A stretch of 64,000 bases of DNA from a virus (taxonomy: Duplodnaviria > Caudoviricetes), in IMG/VR virus record IMGVR_UViG_3300005259_000074, positions 128,001-192,000 of that record; one strand, 5' to 3'. Position numbers and translations under genes: made by a program. Shown here piece after piece: positions 24,341 to 47,454 of this stretch (its first letter is position 1; each line of letters begins with the position of its first letter). The notes under the pieces are model-generated. The model saw nothing but the letters and a program-made list of their open reading frames with translations. It was not told the origin of the DNA and made no database searches.

Positions 24341-25168
24341 ATGACCACAGTGTTATCCGACTTCTCCCGTAAGAGAGCTCTAGAACAGTGTCGAGGAGCT
24401 AAGAAAGTCCTCGTAGACTTCGCGCACGGTCTCGGCGACACGGTGATGTTCCTCCCAGTTTTCGACGAGTTTCGTAAGAACGTCTCAGATGCACGCGTAG
24501 ACTTGTTGACTCACTTCGGCCAAGAAGAGGTGTTCGGCGTCAAGACTGTTCAGTACTCGGAATACGATGTAGTGCTGACGTTGCCTTACGCCATGGCCGA
24601 GAACAGCGGGTCTACGAAGTCGGAAGCGTGCTGCGTCAGAGAACTCGGGATATTGCCGAATGCGGTGAAAGACAACTTGAAGTCTGCGTGGTACAGAGAC
24701 AACTACTCCCGAGTGTTCAGCTCGGACGAATCGTTCCGGAAGTCTAGTCCTTTCGTGCTGTTCGCCTTCCAGAGCACCGCCCTCCCAGACCCGTGCAACT
24801 GTCCTCCGCAGTTAGCTGAGACTCTCTGGAGAGAAGCCGAGAGCGTCGGGAAGATACCGATTGAATGCCACTTCTCCCACTGCTTCGCCAACCCCCGCAA
24901 CGCACAGTACCCTTTCGTGGGGAACTCCACTACCAGGAAGCTACCACCCAGAGTGCAATTGCTCGCCGACACGGTGAAGACCAGCTTCGCGTTCGTCGGA
25001 GTCGCGACGGGCTCCACTGTCGTCGCCATGGCCGGGAGCTCTCTTAGGACGGCTTTCCTAGAGAGGGCGTACCACAGGAGAGACTACTTCACTGAGGTGG
25101 GTCCGACGTTCAGCATCGACGACTACCGCCCCGGCAGCCTGGCCGCGTGGCTGAGAGGACTGGAGTGA
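24341..25168 (+). CDS. Glycosyltransferase, GT9-like (GT-B fold)
   Basis: FAHGLGDTVMFLP and AFVGVATG motifs. Confidence 0.6.
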   Translation: MTTVLSDFSRKRALEQCRGAKKVLVDFAHGLGDTVMFLPVFDEFRKNVSDARVDLLTHFGQEEVFGVKTVQYSEYDVVLTLPYAMAENSGSTKSEACCVRELGILPNAVKDNLKSAWYRDNYSRVFSSDESFRKSSPFVLFAFQSTALPDPCNCPPQLAETLWREAESVGKIPIECHFSHCFANPRNAQYPFVGNSTTRKLPPRVQLLADTVKTSFAFVGVATGSTVVAMAGSSLRTAFLERAYHRRDYFTEVGPTFSIDDYRPGSLAAWLRGLE

Positions 25169-25172
25169 CACC

Positions 25173-26114
25173 GTGAGAGCGTTCGTGCTATCTTGTGACG
25201 AGAACTACGTCGAGTACCTCAGGGCCTTCATCGGTAGCGTGCAGCGCCGTGGGATAGACGCGCGCGTCGTAGTAGTCCACCCTCCGGGGTTGAGGCTTCC
25301 AGCGGGTTGCGTATCTTTCGTGAACTCCAGGCCTCGAGAGTACTTGAAGACCGGTGGTAAGATGAAGGGGAAGACCCACAGCAACATCGGTTTCTGCCGG
25401 TGGGCCAGCATCCCTAAGATAGCTGCCATGGGCTACAGTTCGCTCTGCCTGATGGACGCCGACATGATGGTGACTTCTAAGCGCGTGGAGAACTTGTTCG
25501 ACGCCGTAGAGGGGACGTCTGTCATAGTCGGCGGAGACGAGGAGTCTAAGTGGGGGTTGGGACCGCAGTACCGGTACGTGAGAAAAGACGGATCGGACGT
25601 CAAGTTCTGCCAAGACCGCGCTGACCTGACTAGGATGAACTCTTTCTTCTGCATGCCGGTGTTCTTAGATGGAAGAGACCCGAATATCGTAGCGCTGTGC
25701 GAGAAGATAGAAGAAGTCAAGTACACCTCTTATCAGGAGAGAGACGGCAACGTCGACTTCTTGTGCGACATGTTCACCCACAACCTGTGCGTGCACGAGA
25801 CGGGTTTAGACCGACGAGTCGTGCAAGTGCCGATGGCGCAGACTACTCAAGTGCACTTCGTGGGATACACTCCGTTCGACCTGATCAGGGAAGAAGCCGG
25901 AGACTGGTACACCAAAGATGGTCTGCCGGTCTACTCCATGCACGGTAAGTTCGCGTCTAAGACGTTCGTCAAAGACTACATGTGGGGTTGCAATCGCAAG
26001 CTAGAGCTGTGGGGGATACAGAAGCAGATGGAGCACTACTTGCCGGAAGCTCAGAAGGTGCTCGAGAGGGTCCAAGCAGAGTGGAGGCTGTGCCATGATT
26101 CAGTTCGCGCGTGA
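25173..26114 (+). CDS. Glycosyltransferase, GT-A fold (GT8-like)
   Basis: CDENYVEYL N-terminus and LCLMDADMMV DxD motif. Confidence 0.6.
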   Translation: MRAFVLSCDENYVEYLRAFIGSVQRRGIDARVVVVHPPGLRLPAGCVSFVNSRPREYLKTGGKMKGKTHSNIGFCRWASIPKIAAMGYSSLCLMDADMMVTSKRVENLFDAVEGTSVIVGGDEESKWGLGPQYRYVRKDGSDVKFCQDRADLTRMNSFFCMPVFLDGRDPNIVALCEKIEEVKYTSYQERDGNVDFLCDMFTHNLCVHETGLDRRVVQVPMAQTTQVHFVGYTPFDLIREEAGDWYTKDGLPVYSMHGKFASKTFVKDYMWGCNRKLELWGIQKQMEHYLPEAQKVLERVQAEWRLCHDSVRA

Positions 26115-26721
26115 CGAGTTCGGCTTCTGGAAGCAAGTTGACCCCTCCCCTTTCGTGTACACGGAGGAGTACAAGAGCCGCCAGTCGACGAACGAAGCGA
26201 TGTCTTTCCTCAGGCTGGGGTGGTTGGCGGCTCATTTGGGGCTCTCGGAGATGAAGAAGATGCGAGCAGTCGACGTCGGTTGCGGCAATGGGGAGTTCGT
26301 CAAACACGCTCAGAACTTCTTCTCGAGGGCTGTCGGCTACGACGTGGCTGGGAACAGCATATCTGAGCGAGAGCTAGCCGAGACGGAGTGGGACTTAGTA
26401 GTGCTGTCTGACGTGTTGGAGCACTACTCAGACATCGACGACCTGTTCGACCTGAAGTGGAAGTTCGCGTTCGTCTCGTTCCCGGAGACACCTCGTGTAG
26501 ACGACTGGAGAGAGCTCCAGTCGATGGGTTTTCGGCACTTCAAGCCGGACGAACACCTGTGGATGATGAACTCGCTGGGTTTTAGAGAGTGGTCCGCGCG
26601 GTTAGGAGCTGAGACAATAGCTGAAGACTGCTTCGAAGACGCGATCAGGACTAGGTGGGACCCACGCGTGAGGAACATCAGCAGTTTCTTGTTGAAGAGG
26701 CACCCATTCCCCTATAAATAG
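26095..26721 (+). CDS. SAM-dependent methyltransferase
   Basis: VDVGCGNG motif I; DLVVLSDVLEH. Confidence 0.85.
   Translation: MIQFARDEFGFWKQVDPSPFVYTEEYKSRQSTNEAMSFLRLGWLAAHLGLSEMKKMRAVDVGCGNGEFVKHAQNFFSRAVGYDVAGNSISERELAETEWDLVVLSDVLEHYSDIDDLFDLKWKFAFVSFPETPRVDDWRELQSMGFRHFKPDEHLWMMNSLGFREWSARLGAETIAEDCFEDAIRTRWDPRVRNISSFLLKRHPFPYK
26713..26720 (+). promoter_or_regulatory. T4-type late promoter TATAAATA
   Basis: Exact consensus overlapping the upstream stop, before the 26749 gene. Confidence 0.6.
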
Positions 26722-26748
26722 TTCCAAACTGAGGACGGGCCCGTTCTG

Positions 26749-27966
26749 ATGTCTCTTCTACCGAACAGCGATTACGACAAGATCCGAATCTACCCAAACG
26801 AGTACGTCACCAACGGTACTGTCAACAGGGGCGTCAGACGCCTCTTGGAGAACGACACTTGGCTAGAAGACCACATATCCGGAGCGGTGTCGGCTTCTTC
26901 TATAATGAACGCCCTCTCAGCGGAGATCACCGCTGTCGGGATCGAGACGGACGACGTGTACTCGACGGTCGCCGCCAACTCCGGAGTGTGGAGCACCGGT
27001 TCTCAGGGAGACGTAGCGGGACCCGCTACGAACCACAACTCTTACGTTCCCCAGTGGGACGGAGCTAACTCCAAACTGCTCAAAGACGGACTTCCAGTGG
27101 GAAACGGAGCTGGGTCGCTCGTCTCCAGGCCTAACGTCAACACGCTGGCGGCCGACGCTCTGGTCGCCATAACAACTAATGGATCGGTGACAGTCGGAGG
27201 CCTCGCCATTAAGAACGCAGCTCCTTACTTGGGGAGCGACGCCGTCGGTGACATATGGTTCCGAGGTGGATTGGGCATGTCCAGACTTCCTTTGGGGTCT
27301 AACGGGCAAGTCCTGACCGTCAGCACAGTCACGTCTCAGCCGGTATGGGCAGGGCTTCCGCTCCTCACGTCAGTGTACTCTACCGTGCAGTCTGGGTCTG
27401 CTTCGTGGACGACTGCTGGCAACTACGTGGGGACGAACTCCTCTAACATAACTCTGAAAGCTAACACGTTCAACGGAGCTAACCAGCTAGTCGAGCTGAC
27501 TGCTTCTGGGTACTTGCCCGCTCTGAACGGCAGCGCTCTGACGAATCTGAACGCTGGGAACATCAGCACGGGCGTCCTGTCGGCGAGCCGCGGAGGAGCG
27601 GGTGCTTCTAACGGCATCTTGTACGCCAACGGCTCGGGCGTCGTTAACTCTCTGGCTGTTAGTGGGGAACTGGTGTATTCCGCCGGTGTCTTGTCGGCGC
27701 CGCGGGTCTACGTCGAGAATAAGACGTCTGGATTCGTGATGTCGAGTTCGGACTTAGGTAAGTTAGTGCTGTTCGAGTCGTCGACTCCTTCCGGCCAAGT
27801 GATGAACCTCATAGCAGCTCCGGCTAACGGCAGTCTGACTGTCAGAGTCAAGAATGAATCTACGAACGTCGTGACTCTCAGTGGAGACATCAACGGGACT
27901 ACTACTTATGGACTCTCGGGGAGCATTACGCTGATATCAGACGGTTCTACTTGGCACACGTTCTGA
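26749..27966 (+). CDS. Tail fibre-like structural protein
   Basis: Ser/Gly/Asn-rich; GMSRLPLGSNGQVLTV and LPALNGSALTNLNA fibre-type segments; late promoter. Confidence 0.55.
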   Translation: MSLLPNSDYDKIRIYPNEYVTNGTVNRGVRRLLENDTWLEDHISGAVSASSIMNALSAEITAVGIETDDVYSTVAANSGVWSTGSQGDVAGPATNHNSYVPQWDGANSKLLKDGLPVGNGAGSLVSRPNVNTLAADALVAITTNGSVTVGGLAIKNAAPYLGSDAVGDIWFRGGLGMSRLPLGSNGQVLTVSTVTSQPVWAGLPLLTSVYSTVQSGSASWTTAGNYVGTNSSNITLKANTFNGANQLVELTASGYLPALNGSALTNLNAGNISTGVLSASRGGAGASNGILYANGSGVVNSLAVSGELVYSAGVLSAPRVYVENKTSGFVMSSSDLGKLVLFESSTPSGQVMNLIAAPANGSLTVRVKNESTNVVTLSGDINGTTTYGLSGSITLISDGSTWHTF

Positions 27967-37591: not shown

Positions 37592-37783
37592 ATGTTCATG
37601 AAAAGAGACAAAGCTGAGAAGTTAGTAGATGAACTGATAGAAGAAGCTCGAAAACACAAGAGCTTTGGCGTCAGCAGACTCGACGTTCTCAGACGAGTTG
37701 TGATCGATGAGTTGGCTGAACCCAACTGGATCGACACTGCGAATCTATTTCCGGATGATAAAGAAGAGAATGAAGATCATTAA
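37592..37783 (+). CDS. Small hypothetical protein
   Basis: 63-aa ORF within the operon. Confidence 0.5.
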   Translation: MFMKRDKAEKLVDELIEEARKHKSFGVSRLDVLRRVVIDELAEPNWIDTANLFPDDKEENEDH

Positions 37784-38399
37784 CCAGTCTCACGAGATCC
37801 TTCCACCATTTCCAGAACAGGCTACTAGAGCTATAGAAGTAGCTGCGAGGACGTGTTACAAGTCAGAACGGCTCATCGATCACGATGAAGAGTCTGACGT
37901 AGAACTCTGCAATAAGTTGATCATCAGAGATCACACTGCTATGCTAGAGTTCGCTGATATCACCGTCAGATTCATCACCGACCGCGGTGTCACCCATGAG
38001 TTAGTCCGTCACAGAGTCTGTAGCTTCGCACAGGAGAGCACTCGGTACGTGAGGTACGACGGGAGCATGGAGTTCGTCAGGCCTGTGTGGTTCAAAGAGT
38101 GCCAAGTAGAAGGTGCAGTCAACCCGTCTACTATCTGGTTCGACGCCTGTCTAGCATCTGAGAACGCTTATCACTCGATGATCGAGTGTGGTTCGACACC
38201 TCAGGAAGCAAGGCAAGTCTTGAACAACAGCGTCAAGACGGAGATATGCATGAAGGCGAACGTCAGAGAGTGGAGACACATATTCAAACTCAGGACGTCT
38301 AAAGCAGCTCACCCGCAGATGAGGGCGTTGATGATGCCCCTGCTCGAAGAGTTGAAGTCCAGACTTCCGGTGTTGTTCTCAGACATCATTCCCAAGTAG
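37770..38399 (+). CDS. thyX: FAD-dependent thymidylate synthase
   Basis: THELVRHRVCSFAQESTRY signature; PQEARQVL, ANVREWRHI and AHPQMR motifs. Confidence 0.95.
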   Translation: MKIINQSHEILPPFPEQATRAIEVAARTCYKSERLIDHDEESDVELCNKLIIRDHTAMLEFADITVRFITDRGVTHELVRHRVCSFAQESTRYVRYDGSMEFVRPVWFKECQVEGAVNPSTIWFDACLASENAYHSMIECGSTPQEARQVLNNSVKTEICMKANVREWRHIFKLRTSKAAHPQMRALMMPLLEELKSRLPVLFSDIIPK

Positions 38400-38541: not shown

Positions 38542-39642
38542 ATGTCGAACTCTGACGCTGGGTCTGTGGAAGCAGATCAACCTCCCTTGCCTAAGAATGA
38601 AAACTGCTGGAGATGGCAGTTAGCTAACAGGATAACCACAGCAGCTCAGCTGTCTGATATCATAGAACTAACCGAAGACGAACGATCTGCAATAGACCAC
38701 ACTGGTCTTCCCTTCGCGATAACTCCTTATTACGCGAAGCTGATATCAAACCCTCATATAAGAAAGTGCGTAGTGCCGAGCACTCATGAGATGACACACA
38801 GCGTCGGAGAAGACGCGGACCCACTCGGAGAAGAGTCTCACTCGAACGGCACGTGCGTAGTCCACCGGTACCCTGATCGCTGTCTGTTCATGGTGACTAA
38901 ATTCTGCTCGACGTTCTGCCGGTACTGCACTCGTTCTAGACTGGTTAGTGAAGGTGAGTGCATCTCAGATACTGACATAGAGGCAGGCATAGCTTATATC
39001 AGAGACCACGCGAAGATCAGAGATGTGATAGTGTCGGGTGGAGACCCTCTGACACTGTCTACAGATAAGTTAGACCGCATACTGACTGCGATAAGAAGCA
39101 TTTCACACGTGGAAGTCATCAGAATAGGTACTAAGGTTCCTGTGGTCCTTCCTCAGCGGATCGATCAAGAATTATGCCACATGTTAATGAAACACCACCC
39201 ACTGTTCGTTAATATACACTTCACTCACCTTGCGGAGCTGACACCTGAATGTGTTTCAGCGTGTTCTAAGCTTGCCAATTCTGGGATACCATTGGGATCT
39301 CAAACAGTGCTACTGAAAGGCGTCAACGATGATGCAACAACTATGAGACAGCTGTTTCAGGGACTGTTGAAGGCTCGGGTGATACCGCGATACTTGTACC
39401 AGTGCGACCCGGTGTTCGGTTCGTCTCACTTCCGGACTGACACGTCAGTGGGGTTAGACATCATCAGGTCTCTCAGAGGGTGGACTAGTGGGATGGCATG
39501 TCCCAGGTACGTCATTGACGCGCCTGGTGGTGGAGGAAAGATATGTCTAGAGCCGAACAGCGTGGTTGAAGACAATAGTGAAAAAATCACCATGAAGAAC
39601 TTCAGAGGAGAACTATACTCCTATCCGAAATTAGCGTCGTGA
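38542..39642 (+). CDS. kamA: Lysine 2,3-aminomutase-family radical SAM enzyme
   Basis: HRYPDR, CSTFCRYC (CxxxCxxC), VIVSGGDPL, IRIGT, SQTVLLKGVND and PGGGGK motifs. Confidence 0.9.
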   Translation: MSNSDAGSVEADQPPLPKNENCWRWQLANRITTAAQLSDIIELTEDERSAIDHTGLPFAITPYYAKLISNPHIRKCVVPSTHEMTHSVGEDADPLGEESHSNGTCVVHRYPDRCLFMVTKFCSTFCRYCTRSRLVSEGECISDTDIEAGIAYIRDHAKIRDVIVSGGDPLTLSTDKLDRILTAIRSISHVEVIRIGTKVPVVLPQRIDQELCHMLMKHHPLFVNIHFTHLAELTPECVSACSKLANSGIPLGSQTVLLKGVNDDATTMRQLFQGLLKARVIPRYLYQCDPVFGSSHFRTDTSVGLDIIRSLRGWTSGMACPRYVIDAPGGGGKICLEPNSVVEDNSEKITMKNFRGELYSYPKLAS

Positions 39643-41897: not shown

Positions 41898-41969
41898 AGC
41901 CCAAAATCGGTGCCGACCCGATGACCTCGTCCTTACCAAGGACGTGCTCTACCGCTGAGCTACTTGGGC
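41898..41969 (-). tRNA. tRNA-Thr(GGT)
   Basis: Cloverleaf by hand; loop TT-GGT-AA; T-loop GTCGGCA; no CCA. Confidence 0.9.
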
Positions 41970-41975
41970 ATATGT

Positions 41976-42049
41976 TGGTGCGGTTAGGGAATTACGATAT
42001 CCCGATTGCTGTCTGGCAGGCAGCCGTCTTTCCTCTAGACTATAACCGC
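41976..42049 (-). tRNA. tRNA-Gly(GCC)
   Basis: GCGGTTA/TAACCGC acceptor stem, CCA, non-canonical T-arm. Confidence 0.85.
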
Positions 42050-42060
42050 AATGTAATTAT

Positions 42061-42453
42061 TTACCCTCTCAGGCAGCTTCCACAAGCTCCAGAAGGTTTG
42101 CAGTCTTCTGGACACCTTGTCATATCTTCTTCGTCTCTGTACTTCTCGATCATTGTCTTAGCTGTGAAGATCAACGCGCGATTTCTAGCGCCTTTCATCG
42201 TCTTGGAGTATGGAGTGACCTCTAAAAATCCTTTCCACGTGACGAATCCCCTATAAGTCTTACCCACGCTGAACACGTGGACTCTGACATCTTTCGCTGG
42301 GTCACAGTGATATCTGTTATCTCGCTCTTTCACCCACTTAGCTTTCTTGAAGACCTGCAATCGTTCTTTCACGTCGAACAGAGTTGGATGATACTTGACA
42401 TCGTCTTCTGAGAACGATATGTCTATCTTCTGCATGATCGTGAAATTGTCCAT
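42061..42453 (-). CDS. Hypothetical protein within the tRNA array
   Basis: 130-aa ORF ending just before tRNA-Gly. Confidence 0.55.
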   Translation of the reverse strand: MDNFTIMQKIDISFSEDDVKYHPTLFDVKERLQVFKKAKWVKERDNRYHCDPAKDVRVHVFSVGKTYRGFVTWKGFLEVTPYSKTMKGARNRALIFTAKTMIEKYRDEEDMTRCPEDCKPSGACGSCLRG

Positions 42454-42454
42454 G

Positions 42455-42649
42455 TCATCTTCTCACTTCTGGTATTGGAAGTCCTTCTTCTCTCAGCATT
42501 TCTATCCCATCATCGATAGCTTCTTCTAGAATCTCTAGAGCTTTCACTTGGTCTCTATCAATACCCGACAGATGAGGAAAATCTTTGCACACGGCGATGA
42601 ACTCACCGTGTTCTTCGTCGTACACAATGATCTTGTTGTAGTGTGACAT
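42455..42649 (-). CDS. HicB-like antitoxin N-terminal domain only
   Basis: DEEHGEFIAVCKDFPHLSG...EALEILEEAIDDGIEMLREEGLPIP; 64 aa; no DNA-binding domain. Confidence 0.8.
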   Translation of the reverse strand: MSHYNKIIVYDEEHGEFIAVCKDFPHLSGIDRDQVKALEILEEAIDDGIEMLREEGLPIPEVRR

Positions 42650-42724
42650 TGGTATCCTCTGTAGGTAACGAGCCTACGACCTTCGCGATGTGAACGCGAT
42701 GCTCTACAACTGAGCTAAGAGGAC
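42650..42724 (-). tRNA. tRNA-Val(CAC)
   Basis: TCGCG-TT-CAC-AT-CGCGA anticodon arm; CCA. Confidence 0.9.
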
Positions 42725-42735
42725 AAGAAACTTCA

Positions 42736-43077
42736 TCATTTCCACAATTTGTACCAAGAGAACGGCTTCGGCCACTGATCGTTAGGCCTTGGACAGAACA
42801 CCAACGCAGTCTCAGCACCACCAAGTCCCGACTCGGTCATCAACACGTATTTGTCGAACTTCTTGGCGTTCTCAAATTCTCTGTCGTTGAGCTTACAGAT
42901 GCACTTCCTGAAAGACTTGTCTAGCCATAGGTCGTAGTCTGCGTCTTTCCCAGAGAACTGCCTGTCGGCCGCTAACACTCCGTGCCCGACGGCCAGCATA
43001 GCGTGTCCTATGTCGATAGACTCTCTGACCAAGATGTACATCCTGGTGCTGCACTCAGTCGAAGTCGTCGTACTCAC
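42736..43077 (-). CDS. Peptidyl-tRNA hydrolase type 2 (PTH2)-like protein
   Basis: MYILVR...G..M.AVGHG...W....F.KCIC...TAL..CPR; start may be 43041. Confidence 0.7.
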   Translation of the reverse strand: MSTTTSTECSTRMYILVRESIDIGHAMLAVGHGVLAADRQFSGKDADYDLWLDKSFRKCICKLNDREFENAKKFDKYVLMTESGLGGAETALVFCPRPNDQWPKPFSWYKLWK

Positions 43078-43240
43078 TGTACTTGTCCATTTCTACGTCA
43101 TCTAGGAGTTCTTCGATGAGCTTCTTCTCAGACACTCGTTTTTCGTTGCGGTTCTTCATCGTCTTCTCTTGTGGGTTGACTTCCCACATTTTGCGTGTCA
43201 ATTTGTAGGACGGCGTCTTCTGGTGCTTCTTAGAGCTCAT
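43055..43240 (-). CDS. Small hypothetical protein
   Basis: 61-aa ORF with ATGA overlap. Confidence 0.55.
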   Translation of the reverse strand: MSSKKHQKTPSYKLTRKMWEVNPQEKTMKNRNEKRVSEKKLIEELLDDVEMDKYSEYDDFD

Positions 43241-43398
43241 TTCATCTTTCTCTTCTTGATAACTGTACTGCGTCTAGCTCTCTTCCAGAATTCCTCAGTG
43301 AGTTCTGGAATGTCTGAATAGTCTATTTCAGAATCTTTCATCGCCCTGAGTCTGTCGATGTCATCTTGTTTTATCTTTCGTGTAGAGCGATCTACCAT
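43237..43398 (-). CDS. BrnA-antitoxin-like N-terminal fragment (53 aa, not in the ORF track)
   Basis: MVDRSTRKIKQDDIDRLRAMKDSEIDYSDIPELTEEFWKRARRSTVIKKRKMK; overlaps both neighbours. Confidence 0.7.
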   Translation of the reverse strand: MVDRSTRKIKQDDIDRLRAMKDSEIDYSDIPELTEEFWKRARRSTVIKKRKMK

Positions 43399-43553
43399 TC
43401 TGTGATAGTCTTTCTGAAATCTTCTTTCGGAAGATTCTTATACCTGCGAACTTTCTTCTTGCAGTAAGGACAGCGTTCTCCTTCGCTCACGAGTGCGTGA
43501 TCGCAACATGGACACCAAGAATGCCTGTATCTGTGTAAAGGGCCGCGCTTCAT
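43392..43553 (-). CDS. Small Zn-ribbon protein
   Basis: CPCC and CPYC motifs; ATG three nt after the CCA of tRNA-Val(TAC). Confidence 0.6.
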   Translation of the reverse strand: MKRGPLHRYRHSWCPCCDHALVSEGERCPYCKKKVRRYKNLPKEDFRKTITEW

Positions 43554-43556
43554 AAT

Positions 43557-43631
43557 TGGTAGGAGTAGAGGAAATCGAATCCCCATAGCCGACGTGTAGA
43601 GTCGGTGCACTTACCGTTGTGCTATACTCCC
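43557..43631 (-). tRNA. tRNA-Val(TAC), C33 variant
   Basis: CCGAC-TC-TAC-AC-GTCGG; CCA. Confidence 0.85.
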
Positions 43632-43912
43632 ATAACAAAGTCTAGATCGAGCAAGTTTGGAGCGGTCCGGACATTTTACTGCAGCAATCTGTCCAAACAT
43701 CCTAAAGCATCTAATTATATATTTCTTGCTCGACCTAGACCCATAAATCATCTGGTGCCTATAACCGGTCTCACGACCAGTAACCCTCCCGACTCCTCGA
43801 CTGTTGGTCTAGCAGATTTACCATGGCACTCTGCTATACTCTGTCGCACCCTCGTTCGCGTGAAAGCAATCGATTGCTTTCCTAGGCTGGCGCTTGACGT
43901 ATCAAGCGTAAA
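43632..43912 (-). ncRNA. Structured non-coding RNA candidate
   Basis: 16-bp stem GTCTAGGTCGAGCAAG/CTTGCTCGATCTAGAC plus several hairpins, between two tRNAs. Confidence 0.55.
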
Positions 43913-43986
43913 TGGTCCCTCCAGCAGATCTCGAAACTGCGTCTCGGGCTTATGAAACCCGCGTTCTTCCTGTGAACTATAGAGGG
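43913..43986 (-). tRNA. tRNA-CAT (elongator Met or Ile2)
   Basis: CGGGT-TT-CAT-AA-GCCCG; CCA. Confidence 0.85.
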
Positions 43987-43996
43987 ATAATGCACG

Positions 43997-44070
43997 TGGT
44001 ACTCCTTGAGGGTTCGAAACCTCGACCTCTTCCATGTCACGGAAGTGCTCTACAACTGAGCTAAAGGAGC
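43997..44070 (-). tRNA. tRNA-Val(GAC)
   Basis: CTTCC-GT-GAC-AT-GGAAG; CCA; T-arm one nt short. Confidence 0.85.
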
Positions 44071-44501
44071 ATGAGATCGTTCTTGACTGTCCTTCTGATG
44101 TTCTTCCTTATCAGCATGATCATCTTACCTAGTACGTTCTTCCCAGTGCCTTTGCACTGGCTGCAATAACATACTCCCCAGCAGCGGTCGTGCCACGTGT
44201 TGCCTTCTTCGAGGTACTGATCGCCTGTGTCTAGCAACTTCTGCCTCAACACTGGGTCTCTGAACTTGTAGACCAGAAGTCGGTACATCACTCGGTACTT
44301 CTTGACTTCCCAGTCTGGAACCATTGAACAGACTTGACCTGCTCTCTTGGCTTGCCCTGGAGATGGGAGGTGAGCGATGTACTTCCTAGTCGAGGGACTA
44401 GATGCTTTCGCAGCTTGGTAGTAGTGCTCGATAGTCTTTCCGTTCGGGAACTTCGAAAAATTGGAGAGCCAACGAGTGTCGCCGCGAAATTCCTTGATCA
44501 T
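44061..44501 (-). CDS. NADAR (YbiA-like) family protein
   Basis: WLSNF, EHYYQAAK, KFRDP.LRQKLL.TG and EGNTWHDRCWG motifs; ATG at 44501 with GAGGA SD; stop lies inside tRNA-Val(GAC). Confidence 0.85.
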   Translation of the reverse strand: MIKEFRGDTRWLSNFSKFPNGKTIEHYYQAAKASSPSTRKYIAHLPSPGQAKRAGQVCSMVPDWEVKKYRVMYRLLVYKFRDPVLRQKLLDTGDQYLEEGNTWHDRCWGVCYCSQCKGTGKNVLGKMIMLIRKNIRRTVKNDLMLL

Positions 44502-44608
44502 CTCATCCTCTTCGTTTGAATTTTCCCGAGCTCCTTCGCGTCTATCCGGTCCTGGCAGGCGGCGACGTGTAGTGCCGCTCTTCGAGTCGAAGAAGGGACC
44601 CTCGAGAA

Positions 44609-44682
44609 TGGAGCACTGTGGGAATTCTGACATCCCAACTGCAACTTGGGAAGTTGCGGTCTTTCCTTTAGACTAACAGTGC
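44609..44682 (-). tRNA. tRNA-Gly(CCC)
   Basis: GCAAC-TT-CCC-AA-GTTGC; CCA; T-loop GTCAGAA. Confidence 0.85.
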
Positions 44683-44685
44683 AGA

Positions 44686-44759
44686 TGGTGCGAGTAGAGA
44701 ATTCCGACATCTCGTCGCTAGTTTGGAAAACTAGGGTCCTTCCTCTGAACGATACTCGC
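44686..44759 (-). tRNA. tRNA-Gly(TCC)
   Basis: CTAGT-TT-TCC-AA-ACTAG; CCA; T-loop GTCGGAA. Confidence 0.85.
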
Positions 44760-44891
44760 ATTAACACTCGGACTACTGATCCCTCTCCGGTCTCGACTAT
44801 ACGGTGACCTCGAGTGGATCCTTCATCCGAATCTGGCTCGGATAGATGTGGAGAGCGTCTATACGGTTCTTCACGTCTATTCGAAAACTTC

Positions 44892-44967
44892 TGGCGCATC
44901 CAAGGAGTGCTGACCTCCTGACCTGCGGATCGACAATCCGCTGCACTAACCGTTGTGCTATGGATGC
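44892..44967 (-). tRNA. tRNA-Asp(GTC)
   Basis: GCGGA-TT-GTC-GA-TCCGC; G73; CCA. Confidence 0.9.
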
Positions 44968-44982
44968 ATGATCTAATATACT

Positions 44983-45056
44983 TGGTACTCCATAGCGGTG
45001 TTGATCCGCTTCCTCATGGCTGAGAACCATGTGGTCTACCGTTAACCTAATGGAGC
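44983..45056 (-). tRNA. tRNA-Glu(CTC)
   Basis: CATGG-TT-CTC-AG-CCATG; CCA. Confidence 0.9.
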
Positions 45057-45064
45057 ATGAATTC

Positions 45065-45140
45065 TGGTGGACGCAGTGGTAATCGAAACCACATTCTCCG
45101 GGTGCAAACCGAAAGTAATAAACCGTTATACTATGCGCCC
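45065..45140 (-). tRNA. tRNA-Ala(TGC)
   Basis: G3:U70 pair; TT-TGC-AC loop; CCA. Confidence 0.9.
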
Positions 45141-45296
45141 TGTTGAATCTCTAAAGATTCATAAAGATAAATCAAACTGCCGCTCCTGTCAATGAAGACC
45201 AATTGAATCTTCACGAGAGCGATCTTCTCTCATTGCAACGCACTGAGATCTATCCGGACTACAACCGGAGTTCGATAGGCGGACGTCTCCGCTTTC

Positions 45297-45372
45297 TGGT
45301 GGATACGGGAGGTGATCGAAACCTCTCTTGCAAGATGCGAACCTGCCGTGCAGCCATCTACACTACCGACCC
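45297..45372 (-). tRNA. tRNA-Ala(CGC)
   Basis: G3:U70 pair; TT-CGC-AT loop; one-nt bulge in the acceptor stem; CCA. Confidence 0.8.
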
Positions 45373-45393
45373 ATAATAATGATGCATCTGACT

Positions 45394-45469
45394 TGGAGCC
45401 TACGGGCAAGGATTTGAACCGCCATCCATCGGGTACAGACCGATGATTCTACCTTTGAACTACGCAGGC
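45394..45469 (-). tRNA. tRNA-Thr(TGT), C33 variant
   Basis: ATCGG-TC-TGT-AC-CCGAT; two-nt bulge in the T-stem; CCA. Confidence 0.8.
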
Positions 45470-45480
45470 ATGAAAAACTG

Positions 45481-45562
45481 TAACAGAGGTGGAGAGTTGA
45501 ACCCACAATGCGTTTCCGCCTGGGTTATGAGCCCAGTTAGCCTACCGAGGCTCGTCTCTGTA
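45481..45562 (-). tRNA. Initiator-like tRNA-Met(CAT) with long variable arm
   Basis: CTGGG-CT-CAT-AA-CCCAG (three G-C pairs), U1:U72 mismatch, V-arm GCG-GAAA-CGC; no CCA. Confidence 0.7.
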
Positions 45563-45565
45563 ATC

Positions 45566-45654
45566 TGGTGGAGAGGGAACGATTCGAACGTCCGACACAG
45601 AGCCCTAATTCAAACATCAGTTGGCTCCTGCTCTACCGCTGAGCTACCTACTCC
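45566..45654 (-). tRNA. tRNA-like RNA with extended anticodon arm (20-nt loop region); identity unknown
   Basis: Canonical D-arm, T-arm and CCA; anticodon stem GGAGC/GCTCT encloses CAACTGATGTTTGAATTAGG. Confidence 0.7.
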
Positions 45655-45671
45655 ATTATTTCTATGAAGAG

Positions 45672-45745
45672 CTCCTGTGGCATGGCTCGAACATGCGACT
45701 TGGAGATTAACAATCTCCCGTTCATACCGACTGAACTACACAGGA
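45672..45745 (-). tRNA. tRNA-Asn(GTT) copy 1, inside a 21-bp perfect inverted repeat
   Basis: GGAGA-TT-GTT-AA-TCTCC; G73; no CCA. Confidence 0.9.
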
Positions 45746-45761
45746 GCTCTTCATAGAAAGT

Positions 45762-45837
45762 TGGCTCACTTGGCTTGATTCGAACAAGCATGTTCAGAGT
45801 TAACAGCTCTGCCTACTGCCAATTGTAGTACAAGTGA
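45762..45837 (-). tRNA. tRNA-Asn(GTT) copy 2
   Basis: CAGAG-CT-GTT-AA-CTCTG; G73; CCA. Confidence 0.9.
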
Positions 45838-45845
45838 ATAAGAAA

Positions 45846-45976
45846 TTAGACTGGTCGCTCTTCCGCTGAGCTATCGTGTACATTCTACTTCGTTAGCTGG
45901 ACTCAGTAGAAGTAGGTCCTCCGCGTGCACTCATCAGACCACTCACGAGTCGGATTTGAACCGACGTCTTCCAGTT
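45846..45976 (-). ncRNA. Circularly permuted tRNA-like module P3
   Basis: 3' half 45976-45941 precedes 5' half 45880-45846; ACCAG/CTGGA and TACACGA/TCGTGAG pairings; 60-nt insert closing the acceptor stem. Confidence 0.75.
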
Positions 45977-46000
45977 GATGGTGTCTCTAGGGCACCTTAA

Positions 46001-46080
46001 TGAGTGCGAGTGTTCTACCATTAAACTACCAGCAAGGTATTTCACTCGCCAGCTTGGAATCGAACCAAGACCTCTCGCTT
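46001..46080 (-). ncRNA. Circularly permuted tRNA-like module P2
   Basis: 3' half 46080-46045, 9-nt linker TGAAATACC, 5' half 46035-46001; CTCGC/GCGAG and TTGCTGG/CTGGCGA pairings. Confidence 0.8.
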
Positions 46081-46114
46081 TGGTGGAACGCCGCTCTTTT
46101 CATAACCGCGCCCC
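46081..46114 (-). ncRNA. Ala-type acceptor microhelix (34 nt)
   Basis: GGGGCGC...GCGTTCC-A-CCA with a G3:U70 pair. Confidence 0.6.
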
Positions 46115-46305
46115 ATAAATGCCTCGACACATTAGCCGCTATGCTACTAGTGCCAACAAATCCACTGAAAAGCATGGTTGTGTTGCAACACAGTTCTCTC
46201 CTAGAAGAGAACGCTCGTCAGTTTCATTGAGGTGTCGAAACGCGGTTGCAATCCGCTTTACGACCTATTGCACAAGTTGGGATTTGAACCCAACTCTTCG
46301 AGGGT
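46115..46305 (-). ncRNA. Circularly permuted tRNA-like module P1
   Basis: 3' half 46305-46269, 115-nt structured insert, 5' half from 46153; TCGAG/CTCGA and GCACTAG/CTTGTGC pairings. Confidence 0.75.
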
Positions 46306-46381
46306 TGGTGGTGTCGGCGGGCAATGATCCCACAACTTTCCGGGTAAGAGCCGGATACTCTGCCAATTGAGTTACGACACC
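46306..46381 (-). tRNA. tRNA-Lys(CTT)
   Basis: TCCGG-CT-CTT-AC-CCGGA; CCA; T-loop ATCATTG. Confidence 0.9.
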
Positions 46382-46388
46382 TTGAATC

Positions 46389-46512
46389 TGGTAACGGACC
46401 TACATTTAGTAGTGCCTCATGGGCTATGTTGCCCAGCGTGCTGCCCCGCCAAATGTTTCTATCCGGGGCGAGGTGACGCAGTGATGGTTCTGCGCCTTTA
46501 CACCATTCCGTA
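46389..46512 (-). ncRNA. 124-nt CCA-ended multi-hairpin RNA (tRNA-like)
   Basis: TACGGA/TCCGTT-A-CCA closing stem enclosing four hairpins. Confidence 0.5.
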
Positions 46513-46520
46513 ATAAACTG

Positions 46521-46588
46521 TAGCGGAGCTGGATTCGATACCAGATCACCAGGTTATGAGCCTAGTATGCTACTTACACCACCCCGCA
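46521..46588 (-). tRNA. Initiator-like tRNA-Met(CAT) with minimal D-loop
   Basis: TGCGGGG/CTCCGCT acceptor with U1:U72 mismatch; CT-CAT-AA loop; no CCA. Confidence 0.75.
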
Positions 46589-46942
46589 TGTTGGTGTCTC
46601 TAGGACACCATAAAGAGTCATCAGTTGACGCTCTCCGAGCGATCATCAGAGGTGGAGAAGTTTCTTAGACAGAGATGAATCTTGACGGGACCATTTGAGT
46701 TGGGTAAAAACCCACGTGAGGTCCTTCGTGGCACATGTCTGTCAGACGCCGGCTGCTCAGCAACCGACATCGCTCCTCCACCTCGGATGACCACTGGAAA
46801 GCGATCACCTGAGAATAATCCTCATTTTCAAAGAACGGTGCATGAGCTTTAGTAGCACGCATATCTCTCAGTCTGTTCAGCTAGCGACTTGCGCCTCTAG
46901 CATCTGAAAGCTCTCGCGACTCATGCTGAGTCCATTTTGTCT
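46589..46942 (-). ncRNA. About 350-nt structured non-coding RNA candidate
   Basis: GAGGTGGAGGAG/CTTCTCCACCTC long-range helix with flanking helices; 12-bp G-U-rich hairpin. Confidence 0.6.
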
Positions 46943-47017
46943 TGGTGCGCTCGGAGAATTTTGAAATCTCGACTCTCTGGTTAAAAGCCAGATACTCTGC
47001 CTCTGAGTTACGAGCGC
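46943..47017 (-). tRNA. tRNA-Lys(TTT)
   Basis: TCTGG-CT-TTT-AA-CCAGA; CCA. Confidence 0.9.
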
Positions 47018-47055
47018 ATATTTCTAATCAGCACCTGAGACTTTCACATCTCATT

Positions 47056-47132
47056 TGGTGGGAGAACCGGGTTTCGATTCCGGATATCCTGCTCTTCAGG
47101 CAGGAGCTCTTGACCGTTTGAGCTATTCTCCC
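47056..47132 (-). tRNA. tRNA-Phe(GAA)
   Basis: CCTGC-CT-GAA-GA-GCAGG; CCA. Confidence 0.9.
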
Positions 47133-47141
47133 ATAAACTTC

Positions 47142-47216
47142 TGGTATCCCGTGTCGGTATCGATCCGACTTCCCCTGGATGAAGGCCAGGCATCCTAGCC
47201 AGTAGACGAACGGGAC
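47142..47216 (-). tRNA. tRNA-Glu(TTC)
   Basis: CCTGG-CC-TTC-AT-CCAGG; CCA. Confidence 0.9.
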
Positions 47217-47221
47217 AAATG

Positions 47222-47276
47222 TGAATGAGATGTCTCGCGACATACCAGTTGCAAGCAACTGTCTCACTCATATTCA
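47222..47276 (-). ncRNA. Small three-way-junction RNA candidate
   Basis: TGAGA/TCTCA closing stem, CAGTTGC/GCAACTG hairpin and TGTC-GCGA-GACA GNRA hairpin. Confidence 0.4.
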
Positions 47277-47379
47277 ATGATCACCGGCTTCCGATCTCTC
47301 GTCCGCCTAATCCAATTATACACCACGTGGTGAAAATTGTAATAGGACTTTCGAAAAATCTTCGACCTTTCTTTCGAAC

Positions 47380-47454
47380 TGGAGCTGGTTCCCGGTGACG
47401 ATCCGAGGTCTGTGGGATACGAATCCACTGCTCTACCATTTGAGCTAAACCAGC
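47380..47454 (-). tRNA. tRNA-Thr(CGT)
   Basis: GTGGA-TT-CGT-AT-CCCAC; CCA. Confidence 0.9.

Follow-up and report, generated by a model that had tools for sequence, protein, structure and literature searches.

The DNA that we analysed (hereafter the window; 64,000 nt) corresponds to bases 128001-192000 of a 262,470-bp IMG/VR virus record, which CheckV estimates to be 97% complete. Since the record encodes a gp23-type capsid protein and a baseplate wedge protein, we regard the phage as a T4-like jumbo myovirus. It has no close cultured relative: the best match to the baseplate protein shows 22-24% identity, and megablast and blastn searches of cultured phages with the tRNA array described below, with gene (a) of this array and with one member of the family to which we assign it gave no DNA match. 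The relatives retrieved from IMG/VR through the major capsid protein are fragments of 12-33 kb only, at 55-67% identity; two capsid homologues, P0060 and P0061, show 99% and 90%. Searches for sister loci through the adjoining radical-SAM, NADAR and ThyX proteins brought none of use and a tRNA-Asn anchor pattern, directed at relatives of the phage, had 0 matches; a NADAR homologue (P0001), 92% identical, lies on a 10.7-kb JGI contig.

All tRNA genes of the array are on the minus strand. A second array is found near 253-255 kb of the genome, and the ARAGORN total for the phage is 29 tRNAs. There is no Leu, Ser, Tyr or Trp tRNA and no ordinary Ile tRNA among these 29 calls, so that gene (a) is the sole ARAGORN-called tRNA with a structured extra arm. 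Its lack of an encoded CCA also stands out: ARAGORN finds 20 tRNAs in the window, of which 15 encode one and five, including gene (a), do not. Promoter-like sites were not enriched in a promoter and terminator scan. The main features of the array are the following.

41898-47454, minus strand: tRNA array, with 20 ARAGORN tRNAs, several Rfam-only tRNA-like genes and a NADAR gene inside
45481-45562, minus strand: gene (a), 82-nt initiator-type tRNA(CAU) with a variable-arm hairpin (ARAGORN; MFE cloverleaf; covariance model R1, full length)
45556-45562, minus strand: acceptor 5' strand UACAGAG of gene (a), pairing with CUCUGUU at 45482-45488 (sequence, fold, CM alignment)
45539-45552, minus strand: compact D arm AGCCU-CGGU-AGGCU (fold; recurs in family loci L044, L070, L089 and L080)
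45520-45536, minus strand: anticodon arm CUGGG-CUCAUAA-CCCAG, with CAU at 45527-45529 (sequence)
45507-45519, minus strand: 13-nt variable region, made of the hairpin GCG-GAAA-CGC (45510-45519) and the tail AUU (45507-45509) (fold)
45489-45506, minus strand: T arm GUGGG-UUCAACU-C(U)CCAC, with one extra base (CM, RNAfold)
46521-46588, minus strand: gene (b), 68-nt initiator-like tRNA(CAU) with a short variable loop (RF00005, 38.7 bits; R1, 39.5 bits)
43913-43986, minus strand: third CAU tRNA, with C1:G72, an encoded CCA and an ordinary cloverleaf (ARAGORN; Rfam, 50.8 bits; fold)

ARAGORN calls gene (a) as tRNA-Met(cat) at 45482-45561 of the minus strand; its ends are U1 at 45562 and the discriminator A73 at 45481. 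Read from 45562 to 45481, its 5' half is UACAGAG / ACG / AGCCU-CGGU-AGGCU / AA / CUGGG-CUCAUAA-CCCAG and its 3' half GCG-GAAA-CGC-AUU / GUGGG-UUCAACU-C(u)CCAC / CUCUGUU / A. Both the MFE and the centroid structure given by RNAfold are a five-arm cloverleaf (-29.8 kcal/mol, z = -2.94), the energy of which was equalled by 1 out of 200 shuffled sequences. The hallmarks that the initial annotation had listed are all present, i.e. a CAU anticodon in a canonical 7-nt CUCAUAA loop (45525-45531, minus strand), three consecutive G:C pairs beside this loop (G29:C41, G30:C40 and G31:C39, in CUGGG/CCCAG), a mismatch at 1:72 and, in the MFE fold, a 3-bp hairpin capped by GAAA as variable arm; the variable region alone folds at -4.4 kcal/mol. 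The mismatch is U1/U72, instead of the canonical C1/A72, in the 7-bp acceptor model of both the CM and RNAfold, and it is followed by A2:U71, C3:G70 and A4:U69. The D arm has a 5-bp stem, which includes A11:U24, and a 4-nt loop with GG; A8 takes the place of the near-universal U8. The extra base of the T arm appears either as a bulged U after C61 (CM) or within an 8-nt loop (RNAfold). A U at -1 directly precedes U1, and CAG directly follows the gene, so there is no encoded CCA. Rfam gave only a sub-threshold match to tRNA-Sec (RF01852, 26.7 bits against a cut-off of 47).

A second initiator-like tRNA with a shrunken D-loop, also pointed out in the initial annotation, is real, as it is matched by both Rfam and R1 and its D loop is reduced to 5 nt without GG. 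ARAGORN makes no call at gene (b), and folding of this gene alone gives no clean cloverleaf. It possesses an acceptor stem UGCGGGG/CUCCGCU, A73 and an irregular T arm, and it shares with gene (a), as had been claimed, U1/U72 and the lack of CCA. Its anticodon stem contains A29:U41/G30:C40/G31:C39, i.e. two G:C pairs rather than three. A first pair A:U (29:41) is natural in all alpha-proteobacterial initiators, G30:C40 being the essential pair (PMC5389676). Gene (b) thus shares its three pairs and its initiator-type acceptor with the variant initiators of alpha-proteobacteria and mycoplasmas, but differs from them by U1/U72, by the 5-nt D loop without GG and by the irregular T arm; gene (a), in contrast to these A:U-first variants, retains all three G:C pairs. 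The A29:U41 pair of gene (b) therefore provides a lead, namely that the host of the phage could be an alpha-proteobacterium. The CAU tRNA at 43913-43986 is, judging by its features, of the elongator type (Met or Ile2) and no initiator.

A class of long-arm initiator-type tRNA(CAU) genes

Few RNAs are as conserved as initiator tRNA, and a long variable arm is restricted, according to textbooks, to Leu, Ser, Tyr and Sec tRNAs. We searched IMG/VR with a pattern made of GGGCTCATAACCC followed, 17-30 nt on, by TTCRA, a spacing that excludes the normal 5-nt variable loop; since the pattern fixes the anticodon arm, conservation of this arm and of the three G:C pairs within the resulting family is uninformative. 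The scan gave at least 119 loci, and 96 of the 120 matches listed are ARAGORN tRNA(CAU) genes of 78-94 nt. After parsing and removal of duplicates, the matches listed yielded 71 distinct family members (alignment A1), the loci of which are dense tRNA arrays (median, 9 tRNAs). The design of gene (a) is accordingly not that of an isolated chimera. The same pattern was applied to one genome per prokaryotic species, and a long tRNA(CAU) was found in 16 of the 121 matches listed. Several of these contain masked N or duplications, and the clean copies among the matches listed, about 8, are all on MAG contigs with dense tRNA arrays (e.g. 11 tRNAs in 7.3 kb, or 17 in 8 kb). The initial annotation regarded such an arm as normal only in Leu, Ser, Tyr and Sec tRNAs, which is correct for cells but does not apply to the arrays of large phages, where long-arm tRNA(CAU) is common and tRNAs for several other amino acids can be long as well. 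In the family loci, an ARAGORN length of at least 80 nt is reached by 6 of 48 tRNAs for Thr, 7 of 39 for Ile, 5 of 43 for Lys, 5 of 40 for Asn, 3 of 23 for Cys and 3 of 24 for Trp, i.e. a share of about 5-18%. In the literature that we searched, initiator tRNAs with a long arm are not described, and no Rfam model covers such molecules. As far as this literature shows, we are therefore dealing with a class without published description, found mostly in phages, the genes of which are labelled plain 'tRNA-Met' or missed in annotation.

Comparison of the 71 members with shuffled controls showed that the cloverleaf is conserved as a structure: 90% of its cells are paired (68% in shuffles), cells changed on both sides number 360 (110 in shuffles) and the covariation score is 0.608, against 0.168 in shuffles and 0.11-0.18 in slid controls, a value that none of 500 shuffles reached. 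At 1:72 the combinations are U/U (22), U:A (13), C/U (11), C/A (6), A:U (5) and A/A (4), and neither G:C nor C:G occurs among the 71 members drawn from the matches listed. Next to it, G2:C71 is found in 69 of 71, C3:G70 in 68 and a G:C pair at 4:69 in 61, while A73 is the discriminator in 60. The major determinant for the formyltransferase is an unpaired 1:72, with A73, G2:C71, C3:G70 and G4:C69 as minor ones, and CAU alone is enough for MetRS (PMC9976931); the three G:C pairs license the passage of the initiator tRNA from the 30S to the 70S complex (PMC5389676). Judging from these positions, the family keeps the initiator (formyltransferase) identity set. CCA is encoded in 27 of the 71 members and C74 in 64.

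RNase P usually prefers a U at -1. This base is present in 51 of the 71 members, and the combination U(-1):A73 was observed 44 times for 43 expected; positions -1 and 73 vary independently, and so there is no hidden eighth acceptor pair in the family. For the same reason we rejected a Sec-like reading of gene (a) with an eighth pair, for which its own U(-1) and A73 would be suitable.

The variable regions of the family measure 10-22 nt, 14 nt being the commonest length. GNRA tetraloops on a stem of 2 bp or more are present in 33 of 71 members, against a mean of 2.6 in shuffles (maximum 9 in 1000), and those on 3 bp or more in 22 of 71, against 0.7. The mean free energy of the region is -2.26 kcal/mol compared to -0.59 +/- 0.11 in shuffles; stem length alone, at 3.3 versus 2.9 bp, is a weak test. 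There are 43 distinct hairpin stems, mostly of 2-4 bp, and the commonest layout is one unpaired nucleotide, the hairpin and three unpaired nucleotides. The extra arm of the family is a selected, covarying and often GNRA-capped hairpin. The GCG-GAAA-CGC-AUU sequence of gene (a) matches this layout, its closest look-alikes among the matches listed being the arm of L017 (UGCCGAAAGGAUU), which also has a GUGGG T stem, and that of a tRNA-Asn in L062 (CGGGGAAACCCAUU). The compact D stem (5-6 bp, with a loop of 3-5 nt) likewise defines a subclass, made of L044, L070, L089, L080 and others, which gene (a) resembles. Furthermore, at least 10 family loci carry a second, short-arm initiator-like tRNA near the long-arm one; the combination of a long-arm gene having three G:C pairs with a short-arm gene having A29:U41/G30:C40/G31:C39 recurs in L127, L038, L096 and L035, and nearly so in L010. 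Genes (a) and (b) repeat this combination.

Another variant of phage initiator-like tRNA(CAU) was noticed in nine loci (L034, L058, L064, L069, L084, L087, L100, L105 and L319). It has a normal AGGUC variable loop and an insertion of 6-9 nt in the 5' strand of the T stem, as in GUA-AAAAAC-GG UUCGAUU CCUAC, and scores 55-69 bits with the family model.

Gene (a) as a probable member of the class and its probable function

Covariance model R1 was built from the 71 family members, the window being left out. It detects gene (a) end to end (45481-45562) as its top match in the window, with 50.1 bits and an E-value of 8e-12, and gene (b) comes second. All training members score higher than gene (a) (52.6-86.5 bits), and R1 also assigns about 50 bits to certain ordinary class II tRNAs. 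The score is low because the sequence has diverged, gene (a) departing from the family by A2:U71, A4:U69, the bulged T stem and the compact D arm; among the formylation determinants, A73 and C3:G70 are present and both 2:71 and 4:69 are A:U. Its features make gene (a) a probable, diverged member of the long-arm class. Two lines of evidence support the initiator-type reading proposed in the initial annotation: the sequence features of gene (a), and its place in a large family in which the initiator identity set is conserved.

When compared with bacterial tRNAfMet (E. coli metZWV and metY), gene (a) shows the same CUCAUAA loop, the same G29-31:C39-41 pairs, A73, C3:G70 and A11:U24, and it is likewise devoid of a Watson-Crick pair at 1:72, the family also keeping G2:C71. 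It differs from tRNAfMet by a variable region of 13 nt (5 nt in tRNAfMet) that contains a GAAA hairpin, by U1/U72 instead of C1/A72, by A2:U71 and A4:U69, by the bulged T arm, by the absence of CCA and by a compact D arm lacking U8, A14 and A21. We lean towards the view that gene (a) specifies a Met-charged, formylatable initiator tRNA, a function deduced from its identity elements and which we hold to be probable rather than assured. Its transcript would be made together with that of the tRNA array, cut by RNase P 5' of U1, trimmed of its 3' trailer and completed with CCA by a phage or host CCA-adding enzyme. Its CAU anticodon would then allow charging by the host MetRS; owing to the unpaired U1/U72 in combination with A73 and C3:G70, it would be a substrate of the host formyltransferase and a poor substrate of EF-Tu, and by virtue of the three G:C pairs it would pass from the 30S initiation complex into the 70S one. 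With its GNRA cap, the hairpin would protrude from the tRNA core at the position of the class II arm, and for this reason neither the ribosome nor MetRS, a class I enzyme, should be disturbed by it. Gene (b) would provide a second initiator, of the alpha-proteobacterial type with A:U as first pair. The phage carries the following genes that may take part in maturation or repair.

Genome, outside the window: CCA-adding-type nucleotidyltransferase (PF01743), 454 aa
Genome 24912-27004, minus strand, and 1475-1834, plus strand, outside the window: tRNA repair and maturation genes, among them RtcB (409 aa) and an adjoining RNA-ligase-domain protein
Genome 246934-247383, outside the window: second RNA-ligase-domain ORF

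By their domains, RtcB, the two RNA-ligase-domain proteins and the nucleotidyltransferase form a tRNA repair and maturation kit; with it the phage should be able to complete tRNAs that lack CCA and to mend cleaved ones. The phage genome encodes no formyltransferase, deformylase, peptidyl-tRNA hydrolase or TilS, and for MetRS and Fmt the phage would have to depend on its host.

An unlikely, yet serious, alternative is that gene (a) is the decaying copy of a long-arm initiator that once worked, initiation being ensured by gene (b) or by the host tRNA. The R1 score below that of every training member would fit such a history, as would the A:U pairs at 2:71 and 4:69, positions that are G:C in 69 and 61 of the 71 members, respectively, A8, the bulge of the T arm and the lack of CCA. 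However, all five helices are whole, and the sole mismatch, 1:72, is one that the family keeps too; the fold is better than that of 199 out of 200 shuffles and the compact D arm, which a subclass of the family shares, reflects a design and no damage. In the acceptor stem the family pairs are replaced by A:U pairs, as structural selection would give, and because all these departures remain paired they speak for selection more than for decay.

The extra arm also raises the question of a different amino acid. The arm might recruit LeuRS or SerRS, in which case AUG codons, initial or internal, would be read as Leu or Ser; we consider this very improbable. Like the class II tRNAs (Leu, Ser and bacterial Tyr), gene (a) has a paired arm between the anticodon and T arms, of similar length (10-22 nt in the family), but its anticodon is different, Ser and Tyr identity elements are missing, and the family stem is short, mostly 2-4 bp, often GNRA-capped and arranged as 1 nt, hairpin and 3 nt. 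The class II-like look of the arm and A73 are what could attract LeuRS, for which A73 is the main determinant in E. coli and the anticodon is ignored (PMC9976931). Beside A73, the LeuRS core elements are A15:U48, G18G19 and A20a (PMC9976931); gene (a) has A73, U48 and the GG of the D loop, and shows no clear A15 or A20a in its compact D arm. For SerRS, the size of the long arm is the main determinant and the identity elements are G1:C72, G2:C71 and G73 (PMC9976931). All three are missing from gene (a), which has U1/U72, A2:U71 and A73 and an arm stem of only 3 bp, and thus the suggestion that it could be a chimera charged by another synthetase becomes unlikely as regards SerRS. Moreover, CAU by itself suffices for MetRS, and the acceptor stem of the family carries the initiator set and no Leu or Ser set.

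That recoding tRNAs exist is demonstrated by the allo-tRNAs (Mukai et al. 2017, PMC5389517; PMC7609411). These and tRNASec resemble gene (a) in several respects: a long-arm body whose anticodon is not that of Ser, a D arm made of a long stem and a loop of 4 nt, an occurrence in tRNA polycistrons and phages, and, for gene (a), the weak Rfam match to tRNA-Sec. But gene (a) has a 7/5 branch and not 8/4, 9/3 or 8/5, the 8/4 or 9/3 layout of allo-tRNAs being absent, as is G73, and its acceptor stem has the initiator identity instead of that of Ser. We rejected it as a tRNASec or allo-tRNA since its branch is 7/5 with one additional T-arm base and the Rfam Sec match is sub-threshold.

The CAU anticodon is also common to tRNA-Ile2, in which C34 is converted to lysidine so that AUA is read, and the phage is without an ordinary tRNA-Ile. 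Gene (a) hardly qualifies for this role, which we find the least credible of all and rejected: the unpaired 1:72 and the three G:C pairs are the signature of an initiator, no TilS is encoded in the phage genome and the C1:G72 gene at 43913-43986 is a better candidate for Ile2 or an elongator.

Possible purposes of the hairpin

At this point we may only guess at the benefit of the hairpin for the phage initiator that gene (a) probably specifies. Proteins that target initiator tRNA, be they host nucleases or a phage factor, might be kept off by the hairpin or might use it for discrimination; a contribution to folding stability is conceivable as well. For certain phage tRNAs, evasion of the anticodon nucleases of the host has been suggested (van den Berg et al. 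2023, PMC10264068), and gene (a) resembles them as a phage copy of a tRNA targeted by toxins (VapC), accompanied by many tRNAs and by repair enzymes. Those tRNAs are altered in the anticodon loop, whereas in gene (a) this loop is canonical and an arm is added; also, Shigella phages mostly avoid encoding tRNA-fMet (PMC10264068). The tRNA-repair genes of the phage would fit a conflict over tRNA of the kind suggested there.

The VapC cleavage site lies in the anticodon loop of initiator tRNA. Given the canonical CUCAUAA loop of gene (a), any toxin resistance would have to stem from the extra arm. A bolder form of the idea, which we regard as rather improbable, is that the hairpin is a functional tag that marks the phage initiator and some elongator tRNAs versus those of the host, either by blocking nucleases and toxins or by being read by a phage factor. 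If it blocks, phage translation could start while host initiation is shut down; if it is read, phage messages would have a private initiation route. In either case the short-arm, host-like initiator and the tagged initiator with three G:C pairs would constitute a two-tier start system.

A role outside decoding, as a mimic or decoy that would bind or distract a phage factor or one of the tRNA nucleases or toxins of the host, seems to us improbable to a still higher degree. The array does contain tRNA-shaped genes that are unable to decode (e.g. the gene with a doubled anticodon arm at 45566-45654) and the phage carries tRNA-repair genes; against this, gene (a) retains a perfect 7-nt CUCAUAA loop and the family the acceptor set for charging and formylation, for which a pure decoy has no need.

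Working long-arm initiators would show that MetRS, the formyltransferase, IF2 and the P site of the 30S subunit tolerate an extra arm, and that phages stand to gain by labelling or shielding a start-codon tRNA of their own. The class would thereby offer a handle on why large phages carry tRNAs, e.g. in relation to tRNA-targeting defences, and possibly natural scaffolds for orthogonal initiator tRNAs.

Other unusual elements of the arrays and their surroundings

Besides genes (a) and (b), the two arrays contain several odd tRNA-like genes.

45566-45654, minus strand: tRNA-shaped gene with an encoded CCA, 4 nt upstream of gene (a) (ARAGORN; Rfam, 35.4 bits; fold)
44689-44759, minus strand: Rfam-only tRNA with a UCC (Gly) anticodon and an encoded CCA (Rfam, 39.9 bits; no ARAGORN call)
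Genome 254549-254627, minus strand, outside the window: tRNA-like gene with a CCA tail and the anticodon UCU, devoid of a D hairpin

The gene at 45566-45654 has a normal acceptor (with two mismatches), D arm and T arm; a 20-nt insert at the place of the anticodon loop gives it a doubled anticodon arm, on which ARAGORN forces an Ile(GAU) call. The T arm of the gene at 44689-44759 is aberrant, CGAC-GAGAU-GUCG followed by an 8-nt tail. In the gene at 254549-254627, the 8-nt 5' connector (UAGUCAGA) can pair with the end (CUGA) of a 22-nt variable region, and the adjoining tRNA-Cys (83 nt) has an unstructured variable loop of 11 nt.

Between tRNA-Asn and tRNA-Lys, positions 45838-46305 of the window (minus strand) contain T-arm-like hairpins (e.g. 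UUGGG-UUCAAAU-CCCAA and CUUGG-UUCGAUU-CCAAG) and tRNA fragments in odd order, with only a weak Rfam tRNA match at 45947-46030. An element of about 25 nt, characterized by the hairpin GGUGYCCUAGAGACACC, is present in two copies on the minus strand of the window: the first (46593-46609), which folds at -9.9 kcal/mol, is just upstream of gene (b), and the second (45978-45994) is inside the weak tRNA-like match. It could be a processing or regulatory signal.

NADAR enzymes reverse ADP-ribosylation. The NADAR-domain gene of the array (window 44061-44633, minus strand; Pfam E-value 5e-20) has counterparts inside tRNA arrays in two metagenome contigs (L319 and L335) and may be an anti-defence gene. 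Just upstream of the array, a gene for a radical-SAM protein of the lysine-2,3-aminomutase type (LAM_C + Radical_SAM; window 38542-39642, plus strand), the type of enzyme that modifies EF-P, adjoins the gene for a ThyX thymidylate synthase (window 37707-38399, plus strand).
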